DNA of 64,000 nucleotides. Source: a virus. Within the stretch, counting starts at the first letter, position 1. Every line of letters begins with the position of its first letter. The position numbers and the translations under genes are program-made. The stretch lies in IMG/VR virus record IMGVR_UViG_3300045988_137032, positions 1 through 64,000 of that record; one strand, 5' to 3'. Positions 2,103 through 58,300 of this stretch are shown piece by piece. Under the pieces are notes generated by a model. That model was not told the origin of the DNA, did not search any database, and saw only the letters and a list, made by a program, of their open reading frames with translations.

Positions 2103-5100
2103 ATGGATTCTATGGCGAATGATAAGCCGGATATTAAGAAAACTACCGGTAAGATTAACTCAAAATGGATGCAAAATGCTGTTAAGAGTCTTGGTCTTGC
2201 TGGTACGGAAGTAATCAAAGAAATCTTCCCCGCAACTACATCTGCTGTCACAAGCACAAGTAAGTTAGCCTCAGATGCTATTAAATCGGCTCGAGATGCC
2301 ACGAAAGATAGTAAGTCAATTTCTAATGCACTGAATCAAATGAGTGGCGTTAGAATGGCAAAGGAAGTTGTTGAAAACTCCATTGCTGACTTAAAGAGTG
2401 GCAAACTCTATAATCCTGACAGAGATCCATTTAGTAGCGGATCAGATGGATTCAGTGAAGATGACGTCGATACCATGTTTGGTGATATCGACGATATGTT
2501 CTCTGATGATGAATCTGGCAACGGAGATTCAGCACCTGATGTCCAAATCAATAATCAGGTAGTGAATCGTGATGGTAGCAGTCAGGATGCTACCATTCAA
2601 GTTCTTCAAAAGACTACCCAGCATCAGTTACAAGCTTCAAAAGCGCAGATTGATGCCATGGTGTCTATTTCTTCCATGCAGATGGCTCGTACGTCTGAAA
2701 TGGGAGCAAAGATCGTAGATGCATTGGATGCTATCAATAATAACATCGCATCTCTGATCGAATTCAATAATGATAATATGTCGAAGCTTATTAGCTCGTC
2801 TATCTCGTTCTACGAGCAGATGGGCATGAAGCGTGAAGAGGAATACTCTGGTGGCAAGGGCCAGGTTAAACCTGAGGATATTTTCTCTAACGGCTTCAAT
2901 GCTTCCACATATAAAGATTACATCAAGCAGAATATTAATAATTCACTGCTGATGTCTACGCTTGGAATGGTTACTGACCAAAAGGATATGATTGCATCAA
3001 ATCCTGTTGGTATGGTACTCCAAGCAACCATGAAGGGTCTGATTCCTAAAGTTGCACGTAGTGCAATGGAGGAATTTGATAAGACATTCTCCAACTTCCT
3101 TCCGAATATGTTGGAGAGGCTTTCTGATTGGGGTGAAGGTGGAGACACTCAATCTCTCGGAGGAATGGTCCGTAGAAGTATTGGCTCCGTGTTTGGTATT
3201 AAGAACCAGCGAACCAATTACATCAACCCTAAGAAAGCTGATCCTACGCCGATGCCTTGGAATGGCATGGCGAATCATGCCCTGATTGAAGTCATTCCTA
3301 AGTATCTTCGTGAGTCCACTGGTTACTTACAGGAAATTGCGGAAGTAATTACTGGTAAGACCAGAGATGAAATGAGCGATAAGTTTGTCGGTTACAACTG
3401 GGAAACTGGTCAATATCAAGGCATCAATGATCAGCGTAATCAGATTGCTGATACGTTTATCAATAATACCGTTGATGTACTTCAGAAGAGTGACTTCTAT
3501 AAGCAGCTTCAGATGTTCTCAAGCAGCCTTAAGAACAAAGAGCTTGGCAAACAGCTGATGGAGATGTTCCCTGAATTTGCTCTTCGTGTCGAACAGCATC
3601 AGGGTCCTATTAAGTGGGAGAATCAGTTAGATCGCGAGACCCTCTTCTCTACTATCAAGGGTGGTGATGCTGAAGCTAAGAAAGCCATGGAGGGCATGAT
3701 TCTCGATATGCTCGAGAATAATTCTGGTGCTCTTGGTGATCTTGCTACAGCAAAGCGTAAAGCGACGCAGTCTCGTAAAGAGATGATTTCGTCTTATGAG
3801 CGTAATGCTGATGAGAATAATATTCGTCAGGTTCTTGATGGCCGTTCCACGGATCAGTGGATTGAAGATCGTATTAATGCTAAGATTGCAGATAAGGGTC
3901 ATATTGAAGTTACTCCTGTAGCAAAGAAAGTCTCTGTACCTACGATTCTTAGTGAGATCAATAGCGTTCTTCATCGTGGTATCTACGTCGTTGTGAAGAA
4001 TCGTTTCCCTGGTGAAAAGGGTTCTGATGGTGATAAGAATGCTACAGTTGATACGAAATCTCGTATCGTTTCAGAGGGTAAGCCTTATGTGAAGAATGCC
4101 AGCGGTCTTATTGTACCTGCTCAAGCAACTCCGAAACCTGAGACGACGGCTACCGTATCTGATAATCCTAAAGCTACAGAAAAGAAGGAAGAACTGACAG
4201 CTCAGGACTATGCTGGTATTTATAATTTCCACCGGAAAGAAGCTGAGAAAGCTTCCATTCAGGGTGAACCTGATAAGTATCAGCTCGGTAATTATACTGC
4301 TGGTTTCTTCAACACGCTTAGTGGACTTATGAATGGTATTATGAATGGCGACGCGGATCGAGCATTCGATAACGTCATGAATAGTATCTATGATAAGTTT
4401 GCTAATGCTGGACGTGAAATTTCTGCAAAGTTCTTAACTCCTATTAAGCAGGAGCTCTTCGGCACGAAGAACGAAAAGACTGGGTACAAAGATGGTGGAT
4501 TGTTTTCTGGTGTAACGAACCGGATGCGTGAATCCATGTTTGCTCTCCGTCATATGATTACCGGTGAAGGTTATGTCGGTGCTGATGGTAAGAAGGTAGA
4601 AGCTGATACTTCTGGTAATACAGTGAAAGCCAAACTTACTGGAATGCTCCATAACCTGAGTAACGGTATCAAAGTTCGTATCTTCGGTGAAAAAGAAGAT
4701 GGGAAAGATACCAAGGAAGGTATTCTTCAGAAAGCACAGAATGGCATTGCAAAGACAGTAAGCACTTTCCATAAAGGACTTGCTGGTTGGAAGCATGCTA
4801 TTTTCGGTGATAAGTATGAAGATGATCAGGATCCTGAAAAGACAGGTAAAGAAGTCTGGGCTGAAATCAAAGAGAAAGCATCTAAGATGCTTCCTTCTGG
4901 ATTAGCCGGATCTGCTGTTGGCGCCATGGGCGGTATGATGTCTGGTGGCGTATTAGGAACACTTGTTGGTGGTCCTATTGGCGGCGCTTTGCTTGGCTTT
5001 GCTGGTGGTCTTGCGTCGAGATCCGAAAAGTTCAAGGATTGGCTGTTTGGTCCCGAAGATAAAGACGGTAACCGTGCTGGTGGTCTTATCAGTGCGAATA

Positions 5101-8100
5101 CTCAGAAATTCTTCAAGGAGCATGCTGCATTCTTAACTGGTGGTGCTGCGCTTGGCGCTGCTAAAGGAGCTATCACTGGCGGTGGTGTTCTTGGTAATCT
5201 TGTTGGTGGTCCTGTTGCAGGTGCACTGATGGGTCTTGGCACCGCTGTTGTTCTGAAGTCTAGCATCTTCCAGAAGTTCCTCTTCGGTGATGAAAAACTT
5301 GGTCAGCTCGGTATTGTCACTCTCGGTAAGCAGTGGATGCGTAATATCGTATCCAAGTCTGGTGAAGAAGGCGGAGTTGATGGTTCTAAGCTTTTCGGTA
5401 TGATGGGAATTGGTGCTGCAAGCGGTGGCCTCCTCGGTACACTTGTTGGTGGTCCTATTCTCGGCGCATCCATGGGCTTAGGCACAGCTATTCTTGCCCA
5501 GAAAGAAAACTTCCATGCATGGCTTTTCGGCGAAGATGACGAGAAGACCGGTGCTCATCGTGAAGGTATCTTTGGCCAGTTTAAGAATGCTATCAAGGTT
5601 TCTGTCCTTGATCCTATGAAGCATCGTATTGAGGAAACAGCTGCTGATGCAAAACGATTCCTCTACTACGACGTTTTAGCAAAGCTTAATATTGCACTTG
5701 AGCCTATTGGCAGGGGTATTTCTGATTTAGTTGGTAATATCTCAGCATCTGTCTGGGATACTACGAAGAGTGTCGGTAAGTACATTAAGGAAGACTTCCT
5801 TGGTGGCATGGTTGATGCTACAAGAAGTATTCTTACTCCTGTAACTGAAGCTGCTACGGCAGCAGGTTCTGCTATCTGGACTGCCACTAAAGCAATCGTT
5901 GCTGCTCCTGTCAATCTTCTTTATGCAGTTACAAGCCCTCTCATGGAGAGTGCAAAGCATGTCATTGGTACTGCTGTAAAGGTTATCACAACTCCTATCG
6001 GTCTTGCAATTAAGGGATCTATGAAAATCCTTACTACATCCATTGGTCTTGCTGCCAAGACTATCGGTAAAGCAGTTGCTTTGCCGTTTAATGTAGTAAG
6101 TAAGGCAATGCGATTCATCAACGATAAGGTTATAGGAACAGTTGCCCATATTGGTCGTGCCGGTATGCAGTTGGTTGCTGATGTAAAGGATGCTGTTCTT
6201 AATCACGGTCCTATTGGTTGGATCCGCAAGCAGTTTAGCAATGCCAAAGACTTCATGGGTGTAATAAAGACCCAGATCAGTGAGATGTTTGACCCAATGA
6301 AGGATGCCATGAAGTCTGCTATCAAATATGCGGCTCATAGCATCACTGATCATGTGAAGAAGACTTTCTCCGATTCCATTCATTCCTTCTTCAATATTCT
6401 CAATCCTATTAACTGGATCAAGAAGGGTGCACAGCTCCTTGGCTTTGGTAAGAATAAGGATAGTGATAATCAGTCTGGCGGTAAAAAAGGATACTTCGCA
6501 CGTCTTTGGGAAAGAACGAAGTATGGCCCTGAAGTCAAGGATTATTCTGGTAAGATGGTCCATGACGAAGATGGTAATCTGATTGGTCGTGTTAAGGGAT
6601 TCACTCGTGCACAGGCTGATAGAAACCGTAAGAACGCCAGCATCAATGAAGCGAATAAGATCAAAGAAACCAGAAAGGCAAATAAAGACCGCGAATACAA
6701 TCAGCGGATGATTGCTAAGTATACAAAGAACCAGCGTGGTACTGATACTGAAGAAAATCGTCTGCTTGCTCTTGCTGAGGCTAAGCGCCAAGGTAAGACG
6801 ATTGAATGGCGAGGAGAAGCTATTAAGGCTGAAAGCGTTAAGAAAACTGAACTCTTCCAGGATAAGTCTGTATCGATTCAGGAAGATACCAATAAGACTT
6901 TGAATCGTATTGCTGATTTCATTATGGGTCGTACTCCGAAGCAGAGCCTTTGGGATGAACGTGTTGACCAGTATAATGATGGTAAGCATCAAGGTAACCT
7001 TATTGGTATTCGTGATAAGACTCTTGAGGAAAAACGCGCTTCCGTAGTGACTGATGATCAAGATAGAGAAATGCATCGTATTCAGAAAAACGTGGATAAA
7101 GCACGTGCGCGTGAATCTAAGGCTCGTCAGGAAAACTACGATAAGCTTTTCCGGGAACGTGGTTTCTGGGGAGGCTTAGCTGCTGTCAATTCCAATATCC
7201 GTGGTATCCGTAAGGGTATTAAAGCTGGTAAAAACGGCCAGATGAAGTATGCCGAAGGCACTGACAATGCTAAGGCTGGCGAAGCTCTCACTGGTGAAAA
7301 TGGTCCCGAGATCATCGATGATAAGAAGGGTAATGCTGTCATTACTGGTGCTAATGGCCCTGAAGTCCGTGAGATGAGCGGTGGCGAAAAAGTTATTCCC
7401 AATGGCGGCATTATGGGTGTCTTTAACGGAATGCTTAACTATCTGCGTGATATTCGTGATAGTGTTAATGCTGGATTTAAGACTACCGTAGAAGCTGTTG
7501 ATGAGAATGCTGACGCTACTGCAACTATTGCAGATACTCCCGATCTCCCTGATAGCAACTGGGTAGATAAGAATTATACTCCCCAGATGAATACAAACAT
7601 TGCTCCTTATTTGACAAGACATGATCCGCCTAAGGCGACTGTCGAGTTCAATAAGGCAGTTGGTAAAACAGCTGAAGCACAAAAAGCTGCGGCAGCAGCA
7701 GCTGATGAAAAAGCAAGTGATGCTGAATTCAAAGAGAAGGTTACAGAAGGTATTGCTGATGTAAATGAGGGGGTTCGTTCTCATAATAGCATCTGGAATT
7801 CCATCTTCTCCAAGAAGGGTCTCATTACCGGTGCTTTGATTCTTGGTGCTCCGTTGATTTTTAAATTCCTGAAATCTATCCCTGGTCTTATCAATAAACT
7901 CATCAATGCATTTGGTGATGCAGGAGCTCGCTTTACTGAGGATCTTAAGTTTGGTCAGGATTCTCTTGGTGATGGTCGTAATAGCGGAAATGTCATCGGT
8001 GATGAACTGGAAGGATTAGGTCGTACTGCCGAGTCTCTTGGTCGTGGTGATCTTCCTGGCGCATTCAGAAATTTCGTTTATGATAAGGACGGCCAGGTAT

Positions 8101-48963: not shown

Positions 48964-49154
48964 ACATATTATTTCTTTTTATTAGAGATAACTATTTGTT
49001 CTTGTGAGTGAATCTTTATATTTATATATTATATACTTGAGTTACAATAAAGGAGGCAATTATTATATGTAGCTTTATAAAAAAGAATCCAGTAGATTAC
49101 AGAATCCTAAACCCTATAAGACTACAGATAACGACAACAAGGAGTGACTAGAAT

Positions 49155-52671: not shown

Positions 52672-52759
52672 ACATAATCAGTCCTTTCTATATATTTTTA
52701 CATACACCATTACACTAACGTAATCTCGAAAGTAGAATGGTAGTCAGTGTTTTTAATAA

Positions 52760-53366
52760 TTACTACCACTACATAGAGATAGCAAGGTTTTAATTCGGTG
52801 TAATCCCGAAGCGATGTCGTGATGACATTCGTAACGCTTAATTCCTTCCATTCATAGTCCAAGCCTGGGCACCGACGCGCCTATTCGTAGCTGGATTAGA
52901 CTACCGTTTTTAGTAGCGGGCTAGGTGATAAATAATAGGGTGTTTGGAAGGACGTGTGGTTTAAACGAATTAAACTGAGTTGCTAGTAATCTCCATACAT
53001 GGAAAACTAGCAGACAGGTAAATGCGGACCTGTCGGAGAGTAGACTTGTATACGCATCCTTGGAGGTGTAGAGGATCGCCGTTGTTTTCGGGATCAGTAA
53101 ACGATATCAGAAACCGCTTGTCAGGATATCCTAGCGCCTAACGGCGTTTTGATTTTCTGGCGAATAACAGCGTGTTATTGGTATTGCAGGTTAACCCTCC
53201 CTCTCTAGCGATTACTGTAAATGATTTCATTTGCAGTTGTTCTATATTTGCTGTTTGAAGACGAAAGTCCCCTTCAGATGGCCATAATGCCTTTCAAAAT
53301 TGATTGATAATCACCACATGTACGGCTTCGTTGTTTCACCGTATATGTGGTGATTATCAATACCCT
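52760..53366 (+). ncRNA. candidate large structured noncoding RNA 1 (or structured 5-prime leader of 53425..54141)
   Basis: The track shows no ORF of 60 aa or more in any frame across 52672..53424. G+C is locally elevated (32/60 in 52861..52920 by my count). There are many hairpins, including GACAGGT/ACCTGTC at 53013..53034 and GCTAGT/ACTAGC at 52982..53011. A long-range 8-bp pairing joins 52803..52810 to 53087..53094. A 22-bp stem at 53304..53360 contains a G-T wobble that is only compatible with the plus strand. Confidence 0.4.
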
Positions 53367-53424
53367 ATACGACATGTAGTTAATTTTACCCACGGAAATA
53401 AATAACGGAAAGGGTGTTTTAACT

Positions 53425-54141
53425 ATGCCGAAATATAAACTTCTTCCTGTGCAAGGAAAAACTACAGTAAATGCTCCTCCTCTTTATATTGTGGTTGCAC
53501 AGGAAGATTTCATTGCTATGGATGGAACTTTTATTCCCTGTGGCACTGAAGGAGGATTTGTAGAAAGCGAAGCTTGCATGCCAAATACATCCAAAGATAA
53601 AAGCTGGATTTATGCTACCAATGGTTATGTAGTTGACAATGCAAAAATTACGAATAGCGTTATCAAGAATGGGTACATATCCGGAAATGCTACCATTGAG
53701 AATTCTATCATCGATAAGAAATGCAATATCATGGAGAATGCAGTTGTAGTTGATTCTACAGTGGATAGTAGTGTGATTGGTGTATGCTCAAGAATCGTTC
53801 GTTGTAAATTGATTGGTGATAATTGCATCAATCTTTATGAGAATACTCATATCTTAGATTCTACGATTGAGGATTCTTCTATTTCTGGAAATATTCTTAT
53901 CTGGAATTCTAATATCGCAAATTGTGCTATTCATAACACTGAATCGAAATGTAGGTCTTATGAATCCACTCATTTATCCGATAAGACGGAATTGGATTCT
54001 CTCAATTACAATTATCGTGATAAGCATGGTACTGGTGAGTTTGCTAAACGTAATAGACAACTCATGAAAGAATTGGAGCGTGCTTTTGCATCAGGAGAAC
54101 TCCGTGCTGGCTACGATATCCATCAGAAATCTGATAAGTAA
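53425..54141 (+). CDS. beta-helix (hexapeptide-like repeat) protein of unknown function
   Basis: 238-aa ORF with a GGAAAGGGTG RBS. It has about 15 short repeats of the type x-I-x-N/D-S-x-[IV], for example NSVIKNGYISGNATIENSIIDKKCNIMENAVVVDSTVDSSVIG. Confidence 0.75.
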   Translation: MPKYKLLPVQGKTTVNAPPLYIVVAQEDFIAMDGTFIPCGTEGGFVESEACMPNTSKDKSWIYATNGYVVDNAKITNSVIKNGYISGNATIENSIIDKKCNIMENAVVVDSTVDSSVIGVCSRIVRCKLIGDNCINLYENTHILDSTIEDSSISGNILIWNSNIANCAIHNTESKCRSYESTHLSDKTELDSLNYNYRDKHGTGEFAKRNRQLMKELERAFASGELRAGYDIHQKSDK

Positions 54142-54999
54142 ATTAATATTTTAATATCTTCTAAACTATATGGTATGAGAACATGATTAAGAAGATCTTC
54201 TTCTCATGCAATTTGCTTAACGATTGGTGCCATTTGTTAAGCAAGACAGTTTAGAATTATTACCTTTTCCTCTCACGAATTTCTCATCGTAATAATTCTA
54301 AATTTAGGGTTGAGAGCCCGAAGTTCAAAGCCGTACAACTCCCATTCCTACGGCCGGTCCAGTAAGATTCTGGAGATCAAGAACGAAAGTAACTTTAGCA
54401 TGATTTATGGATAGACAGAAGTTACCAATTGCGATATCAGCCGATATCTGCTTGTCATTTGAATGTTACTGCATCATATGGTAATTGGTAGCTCTCCACA
54501 TCTGTCTTACATTCATATGCACATGCTCCACTCTTTTGTAACGTACTTTGCTAGTATTGATCAACGTTCACAGCTCTCACAATAAATCGCGTACGGTTTG
54601 ACGTTGGCCAGTCTCTCCTAAGTCGTGTAAGAGATGCTGTATGCAATTGCATTATAAGGAGTTCGATGATATTGAATCTGTAGCGATTCTATCTAGTCAG
54701 GTAAAATTCCTGTGCTTCAAGCTGTTAAGAAGTTTACCATCCTTTTGGTGATACGCTGAACCACTGTCGCGTATACGCCCCAATAAGTTTATATATAGAG
54801 TATAGGATTATGAACTTTGGGTATACTCAGTCCAGAGTGGGTCATTACCGCTGGTTCCTAGATATACTCGATAGACATACCCCGTCGACTATTCTATGTA
54901 TAACAATAAGAGTGATGAAAACGACACCTTGAAGTAACTCCATTTTAGACTATTCAAATACACAGTAGATGTGAGATAAAACATCTACTGTGTATTTTT
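54142..54999 (+). ncRNA. candidate large structured noncoding RNA 2
   Basis: There is no ORF of 60 aa or more across 54142..54984. Perfect hairpins occur at 54213..54244 (9 bp) and 54252..54300 (12 bp). A nested long-range helix pairs 54413..54430 with 54483..54507; it includes a T-G wobble that favours the plus strand. An internal GATATC/GATATC hairpin lies at 54433..54448. The region ends in the terminator at 54956..54999. Confidence 0.45.
54956..54999 (+). terminator. intrinsic terminator closing the second noncoding block
   Basis: 16-bp stem AAATACACAGTAGATG/CATCTACTGTGTATTT followed by TTT. Confidence 0.75.
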
Positions 55000-55053
55000 A
55001 CTATTATAACAAATAGGTATGAATGCGTATGGATCTTTTATGATTATATATGC

Positions 55054-55147
55054 CCTCCTGTAGTGTAATGGTAACACGCCGGATTTATGACCCGGATAAG
55101 TTCTAGATTGGAGCAAGATGGGGGTTGGAGTCCCTCCAGGAGGACCA
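55054..55147 (+). tRNA. aberrant tRNA-like gene (94 nt); nominal anticodon UAU, 24-nt extra region, CCA encoded
   Basis: Hand fold: CCTCCTG TA GTGT AATGGTA ACAC G CCGGA TTTATGA CCCGG [24 nt ATAAGTTCTAGATTGGAGCAAGAT] GGGGG TTGGAGT CCCTC CAGGAGG A CCA. The acceptor stem is a perfect 7 bp. There is an A31-C39 mismatch and a G at T-loop position 56. Confidence 0.5.
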
Positions 55148-55193
55148 CTTTGTTTTCCATATAAATAGATCCTTTCAAACACATTCATTTGAC

Positions 55194-55238
55194 TGATACA
55201 GAGACTGATGACTATTATGGTTGTCAGTCTCTGTATCA
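55194..55238 (+). terminator. strong hairpin downstream of the tRNA-like gene (no T-run)
   Basis: 15-bp stem TGATACAGAGACTGA/TCAGTCTCTGTATCA. Confidence 0.45.
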
Positions 55239-55322
55239 TCTAGCCCTAAAAACAGTATTCTAATCAGTTAGGTTTTTCTCTTGTATTCTTAAATACTAAA
55301 GAAAGGGGAGATAATATAAGTT

Positions 55323-58300
55323 ATGGGTAATACAACTTCAGAGCTGATTCCGAACTACGATGCTATTATCAATAACACGTATGACGAAAGTTGGCTCAAT
55401 AAGCTTCTCCATACTACTGTCGAGAACTCGTTTCAGTTTCTGAAGAGATTGCAGCTCAGCTACTGTAGTGTGGATAGATTCCATTTTACACAGAAAGATT
55501 TCTTTGTGTGTACGGATTATCCGAATAATCTTTGTATCTCTATTCCGAAAGACTTCATTGATGCTACAAAGCGTAAAACTTATCGCTATTCAAAATATTA
55601 TGGTGAATATATCACCTATAATGATATTGCAGAAGATTTGGAGCATCAGTTTGATCCGAGTGATTTGAAACAGACTACATTTGAGTTTACACCATGTATC
55701 CACGTGGATGGAAGAGTTGCTACGAACGTGTTGTTCCGTTGTACTCTGGATGGACGTACTCAGGTTGTCTTTTTGGACATTCCTCCGTATTCGGAATGGA
55801 TTGGTGAAGATGCCAAGCATACGATCGAAGTATTCATGCTTCGGAATACATGGACTCATTCGTTCCTTACGAATAGTAAGGTGATGAGAAATCGACTGAG
55901 ACTTCTTGATACACAGGATGCTGATGATAGCGTAGAAGAGAGAAACGGCTATTATGTCTTTAACTCTACCCTTACTGGTGTTTTAATGACAAAATCTCCC
56001 ATTTTCTATTCTATCCGTTGTGTGAGTAAGCGGAGTGATGACTGCTATGAGACGTTCGGAAATTCCTTGGCTTTTGGTCATGTGGATGCTGATGGTAATC
56101 TCTGCATTCCGGCTACTACTTGGCTGAAAGAATATGTTACGAAGCATACTCTTCTGAATCTGGAAGTTACAATTTTCCATCCGAATTACACCTACGAGAT
56201 TCCGAATCTTCGTGAGGTAAAACAGCGTACTACGAACAAGGATATTTATTCTTGTATTGCAGTATGCCAGCAGGAAGAGATGCTTCACTGGGCTATGCCG
56301 ATTCCGGAAGAAAACATCATGGTTTTCTTTGTGGATAAAAAGACTGGTGAAACTACTTATCTCAATTCTTCCGAACTCACAAATCTTCATTATCCGAATA
56401 TTTATGAGATTCGTACAACAAAGGATATTGCAGATAAGTACTACATCAAACTCTTCTATCTGTACCGTCCTCTGTATAAGAGTCTCACTTATGTGGATCA
56501 ATTTTATTACATTCATAAATTCTTTAAATACCAATACAAGACTTCATACGGTCAGGAAGCTACTTTTGAGGATACTTGCAATAAGTTCCTGTATGATCAA
56601 GTCGATCCGTCTCTCGAGGGTACTCGCAAGTACTTTGATCAGATTTGGAACTATGAGGATGTTAATTACGTCTATAACATTAACGATTATGACCATAGCT
56701 CTGAGTATCCTAATTCTTATGCCTATAAACTTGATAAGGCGAAAGAATTTGGGTTATTGGCACCTGACAAGACAAGTGATTACATTGGCAATGTCAATAC
56801 AACTTCTGATCTTTACTATCTGGACGTAAGCAAAGTAGATTTGACTAACCGTGAGCGTACTACAACGCATGGTGAGGATAAGTCTTCCAATGTTGAGTTC
56901 GGTGAAGTACGATATCTGTTTATTTTCCGTAATGATGGTTCTAAGGCATTGAATCTTCGTTATTGGGTAGACGGATTGCTGTGCAATCGCTATACACAGA
57001 TTCATGTTGGCAATTACGATTATATCTACATTCCGAAAGAATATGTGACTCCGAGTTCTCATATTTACATTGAGAAGTTCTGGACTTACACATATTCTAA
57101 GCACCATGCTTTCTCAAGCATGGATGACATGTTTGATATTGAAGTAAAAGCTCCGAGTTATGTCGTTCCTACATGGCATGACCTCTTTGTCCGTCATAAT
57201 GAGACGGAGAAGATTGATAAGGATCGCTTTATCTTCTATAGTCGTGTCAATATGAATGATTATGAGAAGAGTATGCCTCTTGAAGAGCGGAAGCATCAGT
57301 GTGGTATTCCGGATGATGTCGAAGTCATTGACGGTGATGATGGCTACATGTATATGCGGATTACTCAGAATTATGATACTGATATGCCGCGGTATATGCA
57401 TCTCAGCAAGATTAAAGTAAAGCTTGCTAATGAATCTGATCTGAATAAGGACTTCCAGTTCATTATCAATAAGGATTCGTTTATCAGTCATGATACAATT
57501 CCTGCAAAAACACCTGTGCAGCGTATTCGTATTATGGATAGCACGCTTCCTTGGATTGAAGAAGGTACGTATCTTCGTACTTTCGTTGATCGTCGTCGTA
57601 TTGTATGTAACATCAAGATTGAAGCACTTACTCCGTATGATCTTCGTGCTCGTACTGACTACTATCCGACAATAATTCCTTATATTCAGTCTACTGATGT
57701 TACTCCATATTCGTATAAGCGAGTCTGCTTTGTTCCGGAGATTCCCGAGAACTTCATGATTGACATGTCTCAGTATATTGATACTCCGTTTAGTCTTGAC
57801 TACTACGAAGTATATCTGAACGGTCGTCGTCTGTTTGACTATAATATTGAGTGCATTACTCATCGTTATATCAAGCTTTTCAATGTAAGTTCTCGTTTGA
57901 ACTTTGCTGTGTATCGCAGGGATATGGATCCTTTCATCCTTGGTCATGCTCCTAATAAAGAGAAGACACCGATGGATGAATTCATCACGAATGGTCTCAT
58001 TGATCAGACTACGAAGGATAACTTCATTGATAATCTGATTGCTGAGAAACATCCCGGTAGTACTCCTGGTGAGAATACTGAGATCAATGTCAATGATGCA
58101 GTTACACCTGATGATACGACTACTGATCTTAAGAGATTCTACACAGATGTCATTATTCCTGAAGGTGTCACTAAGCCCCAGACTTGGATGCTCGATGAGA
58201 ATGATATCAAAAATAATTATCCCGCAGTATATGAAACTTACACCAAGAAGCATAAAGTTGTCATTCGTCCCAATGTCAACTTCGATGCTCTCCTGTGCAT

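Follow-up and report, generated by a model that had tools for sequence, protein, structure and literature searches.

A probable gene for a 0.8-kb structured noncoding RNA beside a tRNA gene in jumbo phages of the human gut

To our knowledge, only a handful of bacterial and phage RNAs longer than 500 nt have an elaborate conserved fold and no known function. GOLLD and ROOL were recently found to build RNA-only cages, and the GOLLD cage is a closed 14-mer. RNAs bearing a T-loop, such as RNase P and the T-box stem I, dock on the tRNA elbow; the T-loop has the spacing U-N-N-R-A, and its loop positions 2-3 are usually UC or G-N. [quoted passage not shown] ROOL is an ornate phage and prophage RNA of ~0.6 kb near tRNA islands, has no known protein partner and self-assembles by kissing loops and A-minor contacts; Rfam provides profiles of both families (PMC12286853). 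Unclassified lncRNAs of Staphylococcus phage K (Kayvirus) were described as similar to GOLLD and ROOL solely in where they lie with respect to tRNA genes and in being abundantly transcribed (PMC9241854). For phage AR9, the late-promoter consensus AACA-N6-TA/G was described, the last base being the start site (PMC5312081).

The window analysed here is a stretch of 64,000 nt (positions 1 to 64,000 of the IMG/VR record IMGVR_UViG_3300045988_137032) from a phage represented by a ~262-kb contig (ENA ERZ918917 k127_22657). Its block 54142-54999 very probably contains a real gene for a folded noncoding RNA of ~0.8 kb that is conserved across a family of human-gut phages of ~260 kb. The original prediction had read the block as a large, terminator-capped, noncoding structured RNA beside a tRNA gene, which the present analysis bears out, and had linked it to GOLLD and ROOL, a link not upheld by the Rfam 15 covariance models in any clade: only the tRNA was matched in the window at gathering score and in the region 54000-55350 with relaxed filters (E ≤ 10), and representatives of clades A-D gave no match at E ≤ 1. 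Like GOLLD, the predicted RNA is phage-encoded, large (~826 nt) and adjoined by a tRNA gene; unlike GOLLD, it has no model match and is laid out as two similar four-way-junction domains. It differs from ROOL in the missing model match, in that no counterpart of the multiple ROOL pseudoknots was detected in a scan of four clades with little power, and in its setting in gut jumbo phages of ~260 kb, which have multisubunit RNA polymerases of their own, although a palindromic hairpin could play a role similar to that of the ROOL assembly contacts. Compared by description, its likeness to GOLLD and ROOL is the same kind of analogy as that of the phage K lncRNAs; for the latter there is transcriptomic support while comparative structure is absent from PMC9241854, and for the block RNA it is the reverse. 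No comparable large RNA was found in the AR9 literature searched. tRNA, tmRNA, RNase P RNA, 6S RNA and SRP RNA were considered and rejected, as ARAGORN and Rfam returned only the true tRNA at 55054-55147. Since no known family was matched, the RNA appears to represent a new class among the large RNAs of phages. It was undescribed in the full-text literature searched, and unnamed motifs from screens of IMG/VR or human microbiomes (PMC10690425, PMC8040213) could overlap with it.

Relatives were found by exact-protein look-ups and a gapped DNA pattern, and 34 homologous copies were recovered with nhmmer. They fall into four clades (A-D, 52-69% identical) plus part of a fifth, originate from ~260-kb human-gut phage contigs and are all flanked by the same two genes. 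The RNA measures about 640-830 nt in the relatives, and the mean identity of the block (67%) equals that of the neighbouring gene. Other searches gave no further copies: the flanking proteins as single queries had no match in IMG/VR, blastn of 54100-55320 had none in 50,697 phage records, and a pattern for the first domain yielded 82 chance matches and zero true copies in 185,579 species genomes. A pattern for the second domain gave zero copies in IMG/VR beyond the loci already known. Pattern matches with 54-nt spacing from human-gut contigs were discarded, their sequences being unrelated to the RNA.

The block is noncoding. As originally predicted, it contains no substantial ORF (longest ≤ 67 codons in the standard code), and none exceeded 151 codons when any one stop codon was read as sense. 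On the plus strand, no frame was open over at least 40 codons in all copies, hence a shared ORF is absent. The period-3 power of conservation was 1.2x the median in the block versus 45x and 65x in the genes on either side, and neither protein homology nor an intact ORF was found at this position in any clade. A recoded genetic code or a small protein was therefore rejected, and the block shows the conservation without coding signal that is expected of a structured noncoding RNA gene.

All hairpins that had been named in the block were found at their positions by direct sequence check. In the 5' part, TTGCTTAAC (54213-54221) pairs with GTTAAGCAA (54236-54244) and TAGAATTATTAC (54252-54263) with GTAATAATTCTA (54289-54300) on the plus strand; further downstream, AGACAGA (54413-54419) pairs with TCTGTCT (54501-54507) and encloses the helix of GTTACCAATT (54421-54430) and AATTGGTAGC (54483-54492), all exact in the window. 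Several of them are variable, clade-specific decorations, and the conserved core is found elsewhere, at roughly 54306-54950. Both the stretch with the hairpins at 54213-54300 and the domain 54413-54507 are missing in clade C. The plus strand of the block folds at -248 kcal/mol (z = -7.5 in one run and -10.2 in another) and the minus strand at z = -3.3. Ten coding stretches of the same length from the window reached z = -1.1 to -10.1; the visible hairpins are therefore real but unexceptional in this phage genome, and the folding z-score was dropped as evidence for an RNA. A second gene-free block (52672-53424), a decayed ORF, still folds at z = -7.0; it has no similarity to the block studied here. 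The significance of the block structure comes only from the comparison with relatives.

Covariation was counted on an alignment of 23 sequences. The 142 predicted pairs were paired in 91.7% of cases, compared to 36-40% when the partners were slid. Pairs changed on both sides numbered 65, versus 48.5 ± 2.5 after shuffling (0 of 500 shuffles reached 65) and 13-21 after sliding, whereby such counts rest on few independent events, as only four to five lineages, all from one group of phages, are known. Six helices of at least 4 bp were at least 95% paired with at least two double changes, and the same procedure found none in the upstream gene. Pairs of the window's minimum-free-energy fold stayed paired after changes on both sides in 56-67% of cases (21-47% in the coding control), the ratio of double to single changes was ~1 in the RNA and 0.16-0.45 in coding DNA, and RNAalifold gave 56 double-change pairs in the block against 26 in coding DNA. 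RNAalifold overfits coding DNA and folding energy is useless as a discriminator in this phage genome, a calibration lesson which makes such controls essential. The compensatory changes that the original prediction had called for are thus present above two coding controls, and they include long-range helices. G-U exceeded A-C in the alignment (252:91 cells), which favours the plus strand. Together, the compensatory pairing and the surplus of G-U speak for selection on a single RNA strand. A scan for pseudoknots and tertiary pairs among covarying complementary runs outside the nested fold turned up only candidates that were short and weak, four clades providing little power.

Based on the copies, the noncoding signal, the compensatory changes and the G-U excess, a noncoding RNA of ~826 nt is predicted at 54175-55000 on the plus strand, as are all elements described in the following. 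It would begin with the terminal hairpin H1 (54175-54207), in which AUGAGAA (54175-54181) pairs with UUCUCAU (54201-54207). A hairpin is present here in every clade, with the stems GGGAGAA/UUCUCCC, GGAAGAA/UUCUUCC and GAGUGAG/CUCACUC elsewhere (compared by eye, without formal count). The two peripheral hairpins at 54213-54244 and 54252-54300 are variable in evolution; compensatory changes were seen within clade A (copies L009 and L011), and clades B and D have other hairpins.

Domain 1 (54311-54579) is closed by helices 5 (54311-54317/54573-54579) and 6 (54320-54325/54563-54569), which are 100% and 98.6% paired. The closing helix UGAGAG/CUCUCA is replaced by CGAGCG/UGCUCG in clade D, and a U-A to C-G change occurs in copy L019. 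At the predicted four-way junction, hairpin 1b (helix 7, 54330-54354), which contains GCCGTA/TACGGC exactly as originally predicted, has double changes in 8 of 9 pairs and at least four stem sequences. Hairpin 1c (helix 8, 54358-54374) consists of a 5-bp stem closed by G-C and the 7-nt loop UAAGAUU; it is 100% paired with two double-changed pairs, and the loop is invariant except for one A in L019, its U...A spacing being T-loop-like. The long arm (54375-54562) is formed by 54375-54380/54557-54562, 54386-54390/54545-54549, 54398-54402/54522-54526 and 54407-54412/54511-54516. Helix 9 of this arm is 100% paired with three double-changed pairs, and variants of its other helices, compared by hand, were GCAUG/CAUGC versus GUAUG/CAUAC, AUGGAU/AUUCAU versus GUGAAU/AUUCAC and AAAGU/ACUUU versus GAAGU/ACUUC. 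The nested helices at 54413-54507 form a variable insert that caps the arm. The single-stranded CCACUCUUUUGUAACG (54528-54543) is near-invariant in clades A-C and different in clade D.

Both domains are linked by a central helix (helix 13, 54609-54639; seven pairs, 87.9% paired, two double-changed) with moderate support. It is followed by the hairpin AUGC-AAUU-GCAU (54641-54652), a perfect 12-nt palindrome. The variants AUGUAGCUACAU and AUGCCAUGGCAU are likewise perfect palindromes including the 4-nt loop, so that three of the four sequence variants keep the symmetry, which L017 breaks. This is suggestive of a candidate self-pairing (dimerisation) element, four variants being known in all.

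Domain 2 (54658-54940) has the layout of domain 1. Its closing helices 15 (54659-54662/54937-54940) and 19 (54713-54718/54931-54936) are 100% and 95.6% paired and include one U-A to C-G change. Hairpin 2b at the junction (helix 16, 54668-54693) has double changes in 3 of 5 pairs, and hairpin 2c (helix 18, 54698-54712), which carries the invariant loop UAAAAUU, in 3 of 4 pairs (stems CAGG/CCUG, UGGG/CCCA and UGAG/CUCA). The stretch 54722-54786 on the 5' side of the long arm is variable and absent in clade D. The long arm itself (54787-54904) consists of 54790-54802/54889-54902, 54821-54827/54860-54867 and 54829-54840/54848-54856; helix 25 is 97.5% paired with double changes in 5 of 7 pairs and four fully paired stem variants, whereas support is weaker for helices 22 and 26, with 82-84% pairing. 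The pattern GRAGTTCRA-N20-60-GTAARATTC occurs only twice in the 64-kb window when both strands are searched, at 54320-54370 and 54658-54709. Judged from the sequence, the RNA is built on a duplicated module: both domains are predicted four-way junctions of similar layout, in which a GRAGUUCRA strand and a 5-bp hairpin with the loop UAARAUU recur. Like T-loop RNAs, it has two conserved 7-nt loops with U-N-N-R-A spacing on 5-bp stems closed by G-C; unlike them, loop positions 2-3 are AA, and the models of RNase P and T-box were not matched. By analogy, the resemblance is a lead for tRNA docking.

The promoter-like motif AACTATATGGTA (54164-54175, AACW-N6-TA) lies 22 nt past the upstream stop codon at the foot of the first hairpin and is found at the same place in four clades. 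As AACT-N6-TA, it has one mismatch (T for A) to the AR9 consensus; the AACT variant also precedes two protein genes (36566, 58351). Sites fitting AACA-N6-TA/G lie before the tRNA gene (55008-55019), the 1001-aa gene (55251-55262) and the minus-strand tRNA cluster (48989-49000). Within the window, AACA-N6-TA has an 8.5x higher density in intergenic DNA than in coding DNA, and all 11 sites of the form AAC[AT]A-N5-TA[TA] are intergenic. The RNA polymerase beta-like genes of the phage are 27-29% identical to those of AR9/PBS1, so its transcription machinery appears to be distantly related to that of these Bacillus phages; in AR9, the consensus belongs to the late (non-virion RNA polymerase) units. 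From this motif we infer A54175 as the transcription start. At the other end, the predicted intrinsic terminator was confirmed at 54956-54997 with an 8-nt loop and a stem of 17 bp instead of 16 bp; including the following U run, it reaches 54999. It is helix 27 of the fold, 97.7% paired with 10 of 15 pairs double-changed and a further stem variant in L366. No terminator was found between the upstream stop codon at 54141 and the motif, so transcripts reading through from upstream must carry the RNA too. The 5' start and the discreteness of the RNA are given here as predictions.

The neighbouring unit (55008-55147), which is not part of the RNA, comprises the promoter motif AACAAATAGGTA (55008-55019) and a tRNA-Ile(UAU)-like gene (55054-55147). 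The adjacent tRNA of the original prediction was recovered by ARAGORN as Ile-UAU and by the Rfam tRNA model with 55.2 bits; it begins 54 nt past the terminator, carries a conserved extra arm of 21 nt, and a four-tRNA cluster lies 5 kb upstream. The upstream gene, which ends with its stop codon at 54141 and encodes a 238-aa product that stops at the same residue in all homologues, is on the same strand as the downstream neighbour. The 1001-aa neighbour had no match in Pfam, PHROG, PDB sequences or by tblastn against phages. RNA and tRNA co-occur in clades A-D, and distant relatives, in which the downstream gene is 29-32% identical, have ~105-140 nt at this place with neither RNA nor tRNA. This suggests a joint gain of the RNA and the adjacent tRNA gene.

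The overall explanation to which we assign a probability of about 70% is an independent gene that encodes a large, structured, trans-acting noncoding RNA in a ~262-kb gut jumbo phage. A late-type promoter of the phage itself (AACW-N6-TA) would most likely drive transcription from about A54175, presumably late in infection, and transcription would stop at the 17-bp terminator (54956-54999) to give a discrete RNA of ~0.83 kb. The RNA is predicted to fold into the domains 54311-54579 and 54658-54940, each a four-way junction of a closing helix with the 5' strand GRAGUUCRA, a variable hairpin, the 5-bp hairpin with the UAARAUU loop and an insertion-tolerant long arm, with the short hairpin of 12 palindromic nucleotides between them. 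Its role is probably an architectural one, exerted in trans. In analogy to GOLLD and ROOL, the RNA may self-associate via the palindromic hairpin and other contacts, or both T-loop-like loops may be presented to a binding partner, of which a tRNA or a tRNA-binding factor is the most plausible because RNA and neighbouring tRNA gene appear to have been gained together.

A cis-acting part of a longer transcript, either a 3' UTR of the 238-aa gene serving as stabiliser or processing platform or a leader governing the tRNA, is unlikely. The lack of a terminator between the stop codon 54141 and the block, the same-strand genes on both sides and a promoter assigned by motif only would fit it, but ~650 nt of conserved, covarying two-domain architecture far exceed the needs of known stabilising 3' ends, the first hairpin has the conserved promoter motif exactly at its foot in every clade, and between the RNA and the tRNA lie a strong terminator and a further promoter motif. 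A ribozyme, whether self-processing, tRNA-processing or with a group-I-like core without exons, is very unlikely. It was suggested by the large size, by invariant unpaired stretches (CCCGAAG, the loops and, in clades A-C, CCACUCUUUUGUAACG) and by the 35-nt leader which the tRNA has if started at its own promoter. A group I intron in particular came into question by 'GUUCACAG', as AACGUUCACAG-CUCUCA is reminiscent of an 'R' element of group I introns with a P3-like long-range helix after it, the latter formed by UGAGAG/CUCUCA. Comparative pairing led to its rejection: the GUUC of 'GUUCACAG' pairs with GAAG (helix 6, 54320-54325/54563-54569) with ACA bulged, so that the P3-P7 pseudoknot topology of the group I core, in which the 5' strand of P7 runs directly into the 3' strand of P3 and P7 is closed after P8, is not formed. 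Exons are absent as well, since the upstream ORF ends like its homologues and is followed by the terminator, a promoter motif and the tRNA; moreover, no Rfam ribozyme or intron model was matched.

Size (~0.66-0.83 kb), phage origin and position beside a tRNA would agree with a highly diverged GOLLD or ROOL (or another known large RNA) as described (PMC12286853), the more so as distant members can escape covariance models. Given that Rfam 15 was unmatched at all three thresholds and that the two-domain repeat layout is not known from either family, the chance of this is slim. Hardly any weight is given to an absence of RNA function, i.e. a decayed gene, a hairpin-rich spacer or a DNA element (origin, packaging or protein-binding site). 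The decayed ORF at 52672-53424 folds well, coding DNA does so nearly as well as the block, and the 12-nt palindrome might serve as a DNA site for protein binding; however, remnants of a protein are seen in no clade, identity is as high as in the neighbouring gene yet codon periodicity is absent, and compensatory changes with G-U excess argue for selection on one RNA strand.

With the stand-alone, trans-acting RNA as the preferred explanation, a more specific picture is offered tentatively: a new giant phage RNA class of two four-way-junction modules, which forms a palindrome-driven RNA-only complex or docks tRNA via its T-loop-like loops. As part of this same tentative picture, the GOLLD/ROOL lifestyle might have arisen here independently for a third time, in jumbo phages that carry out their own transcription, and the RNA would have been acquired along with an unusual tRNA(UAU) bearing a conserved extra arm. 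If one more unrelated class exists in the phage and tRNA-side setting, such RNAs would prove to be something that phages have invented repeatedly and not two curiosities. The compact, internally duplicated architecture is a target for structural work, and the RNA and its odd tRNA, apparently gained as a unit in abundant human-gut jumbo phages, would provide a defined module for the question of function.

The block at 54142-54999 on the plus strand lies between a 238-aa ORF with a weak hexapeptide-repeat match (53425-54141) and a tRNA gene (55054-55147), beyond which a 1001-aa ORF without assigned function follows. Hairpins, terminator and adjacent tRNA were all found where the original prediction had placed them, and the absence of ORFs was upheld, there being no long ORF in the standard code or with any single stop codon read as sense. 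The phage setting also proved correct: the window belongs to a ~262-kb phage contig from human-gut metagenomes, whose proteins include a divergent family-B DNA polymerase and RNA-polymerase beta-like proteins. The nearest cultured relatives, at 27-29% identity, are the ~250-kb jumbo phages AR9/PBS1 (Bacillus) and S6-like phages (Staphylococcus). These relatives and the encoded beta-like proteins indicate a jumbo-phage source that encodes multisubunit RNA polymerases of its own. No DNA-level similarity of the block to deposited phage genomes was found.

Looking up exact proteins and searching with a gapped DNA pattern taken from the conserved core recovered 34 copies of the block. They form four clades (A-D), 52-69% identical to one another; a fifth lineage was recovered in part. 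Every copy occupies a gene-free gap of 1.0-1.2 kb flanked by the same pair of genes. Pattern searches of 185,579 species genomes, like additional IMG/VR scans, gave no further carriers. In phages with a 1001-aa homologue only 29-32% identical, the gap measures ~105-140 nt and holds a terminator and the promoter motif, with RNA and tRNA both absent; RNA and tRNA therefore travel together and are confined to this phage lineage.

The three-base rhythm in conservation reached 1.2 times the median spectral power in the block, compared with 45 and 65 in the flanking genes of the same phage set, and no plus-strand frame is open for 40 codons in all copies. Mean pairwise identity is 67% for the block and 68% for the upstream gene; with the lack of codon rhythm, this points to selection on the block, though not for a protein.

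The plus strand of the block folds at -248 kcal/mol (z = -7.5 or -10.2; minus strand z = -3.3), and ten equal-length coding stretches of the window ranged in z from -1.1 to -10.1, with most values near -4 to -5, relative to dinucleotide shuffles. Since coding stretches and a decayed-gene block fold comparably, folding z-scores are unreliable in this genome; hairpin richness is a property of the genome and was not counted as evidence. Local composition or widespread mRNA structure could cause the strong folding of coding regions. The decayed gene, on the minus strand, occupies the other gene-free block of the window (52672-53424; z = -7.0, several terminator-like hairpins) and is intact in clade B (160-188 aa; tblastn identity 47% over 90 aa). 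This block has no similarity to the RNA block.

For a 23-sequence alignment (A2), the RNAalifold consensus comprised 142 pairs in 27 helices. Its cells were paired in 91.7%, against 36-40% with partners slid by 1-3 columns, and 65 pairs had both sides changed. Column shuffles gave 48.5 ± 2.5 such pairs, with none of 500 shuffles reaching 65, and sliding gave 13-21. Because RNAalifold rewards covariation, the same pipeline was run on the upstream coding gene as a control with the same 22 taxa. The control gave 122 pairs, 26 double changes and an energy of -93, and the RNA 135 pairs, 56 double changes and -173; with just four clades, RNAalifold overfits. Three measures set the RNA apart from the coding background. 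Helices of ≥ 4 bp, ≥ 95% paired and with ≥ 2 double changes numbered six in the RNA and none in the control. When pairs of the MFE fold, computed from the window sequence alone, were scored in the other clades, 56-67% of those changed on both sides were still paired (control 21-47%), as were 44-49% of all changed pairs (26-34% in two coding controls). Double and single changes were about equal in the RNA, whereas their ratio was 0.16-0.45 in the coding controls. With 252 G-U cells to 91 A-C cells, the bias is the one expected for a plus-strand RNA. The comparative evidence, with its coding controls, supports the proposal of a large structured phage RNA.

The predicted RNA, all on the plus strand, opens with a 5' hairpin (54175-54207) found in every clade with clade-specific sequence, followed by two variable peripheral hairpins (54213-54300), a stretch missing from clade C. 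Helices 54311-17/54573-79 and 54320-25/54563-69 close domain 1 (54311-54579). The domain contains a junction hairpin (54330-54; 8/9 pairs covary), a hairpin with a 5-bp stem, G-C closure and loop UAAGAUU (54358-74), and a long arm (54375-80/54557-62, 54386-90/54545-49, 54398-402/54522-26, 54407-12/54511-16). The nested domain predicted at 54413-54507 is the tip of this arm; it is replaceable and absent in clade C. A central helix (54609-39) lies between the domains and is followed by a short hairpin (54641-52). Domain 2 (54658-54940) repeats the plan of domain 1, with closing helices 54659-62/54937-40 and 54713-18/54931-36, hairpins 54668-93 and 54698-712 (loop UAAAAUU), and a long arm with well-supported helices, e.g. 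54821-27/54860-67, which has four different fully paired sequences. The terminator follows at 54956-99 (10/15 pairs covary). Over both strands of the 64-kb window there are just two occurrences of the composite motif GRAGTTCRA-N20-60-GTAARATTC, one at the start of each domain, so the duplication is no chance resemblance. The hairpin at 54641-52 is a perfect 12-nt palindrome, AUGCAAUUGCAU; variants in other clades (AUGUAGCUACAU, AUGCCAUGGCAU) are likewise palindromic, loop included, and one copy deviates. As a hairpin needs no self-complementary loop, the palindrome is a hint of intermolecular pairing, though four variants are too few for certainty.

The consensus of AR9 late promoters, which the non-virion polymerase recognises, is AACA-N6-TA/G, its last base being the start site (PMC5312081). 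Within the window, intergenic DNA has an 8.5-fold higher density of AACA-N6-TA than coding DNA, and 11/11 matches to AAC[AT]A-N5-TA[TA] are intergenic. Canonical motifs directly precede the tRNA (55008-19), the 1001-aa gene (55251-62), the tRNA cluster on the minus strand (48989-49000) and several genes for proteins; in distant relatives the motif is retained ahead of the 1001-aa homologue. Given this enrichment upstream of genes, an AR9-like non-virion RNA polymerase promoter code is probably used by this gut phage. Together with AACT variants, the motif is found directly before genes in most intergenic regions, e.g. at 1366, 2035, 13779, 24662(-), 36566, 45978, 48989(-), 55008, 55251, 58351, 59373 and 61471. 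In all clades, AACTAT[AT][AT][AG]GTAT is located 22 bases past the upstream stop codon at the foot of the 5' hairpin, with T at the fourth position (A in the AR9 consensus). This conserved AR9-like motif leads us to infer that transcription begins at about A54175 and yields a discrete ~826-nt RNA that ends at the terminator; transcripts may also read through from the upstream gene. The contig of relative L012 (run SRR13378580) ends at 5902, exactly the 3' foot of the terminator stem, which would mark a transcript end if the run were a metatranscriptome. Ahead of the 1001-aa gene, a 78-nt stretch (55245-55322; CCTAAAAACAGTATTCTAATCAGTTAGG...AAAGAAAGGGGAGATAATATAAGTT) includes promoter motif and ribosome-binding site. 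It is almost invariant even in clade D, despite diverged surroundings, is recognisable in phages only 30% identical in the 1001-aa protein, and may contain an extra regulatory element.

The tRNA is unusual in combining a UAU (Ile) anticodon with a 21-nt extra arm (compared in L011, L013, L014, L017, L019 and L366). The 4-bp stem of this arm covaries across clades (GUUC/GAGC, GCGC/GCGC, CGGC/GCCG) and its loop carries a conserved 7-nt YAGAUUR; acceptor and D arms diverge strongly. No tRNA was called in L011 and L043; L017 was called as CUA 'Pyl' and L014 with a 4-nt anticodon. A downstream hairpin of ~17 bp (55189-55244; ACAGAGACTGATGACTA/TGGTTGTCAGTCTCTGT) is conserved across all clades, shows compensatory changes in clade D, lacks a T run, and is possibly a tRNA processing or termination signal. 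In the close relative L006 (11660-12640, window ~55088), a 905-bp insertion interrupts the tRNA gene right after the anticodon. A 5' fragment of the tRNA is left upstream of it, and a full but diverged copy of the tRNA lies downstream. The 266-aa ORF of the insertion matches HNH-endonuclease PHROGs and has a 32%-identical paralogue within the minus-strand tRNA cluster of L002, L004, L006, L008, L009 and L010 (~4400-5205), absent from the window's own cluster. The ORF and its paralogues look like free-standing homing endonucleases targeting tRNA genes.

The suggested link to the GOLLD/ROOL families was not sustained: Rfam 15 gave no match in the window, the region (E ≤ 10) or any clade (E ≤ 1), and no GOLLD, ROOL, OLE, raiA, intron, RNase P, tmRNA or other described RNA was detectable. 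A group I intron, considered for the likeness of 'AACGUUCACAG-CUCUCA' to the R element, was rejected, as GUUC pairs in a different helix and exons are lacking. No description of this RNA was found in the literature; unnamed motifs of large screens might overlap it. The phage RNAs GOLLD and ROOL lie near tRNA islands and assemble into protein-free cages, 14-mer and ROOL-type, held by kissing loops; tRNA enclosure has been suggested for them (PMC12286853). Two unclassified long RNAs are similarly placed in phage K (PMC9241854). The present RNA resembles GOLLD/ROOL in setting and scale; its own leads are the palindromic hairpin that separates the two similar domains and a pair of invariant T-loop-like loops. 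It is best read as a probably late-expressed, trans-acting architectural RNA, which would associate either with itself or with tRNA or a tRNA-binding factor. We regard it as a new class of an already known kind of element, of high interest for RNA structural biology.
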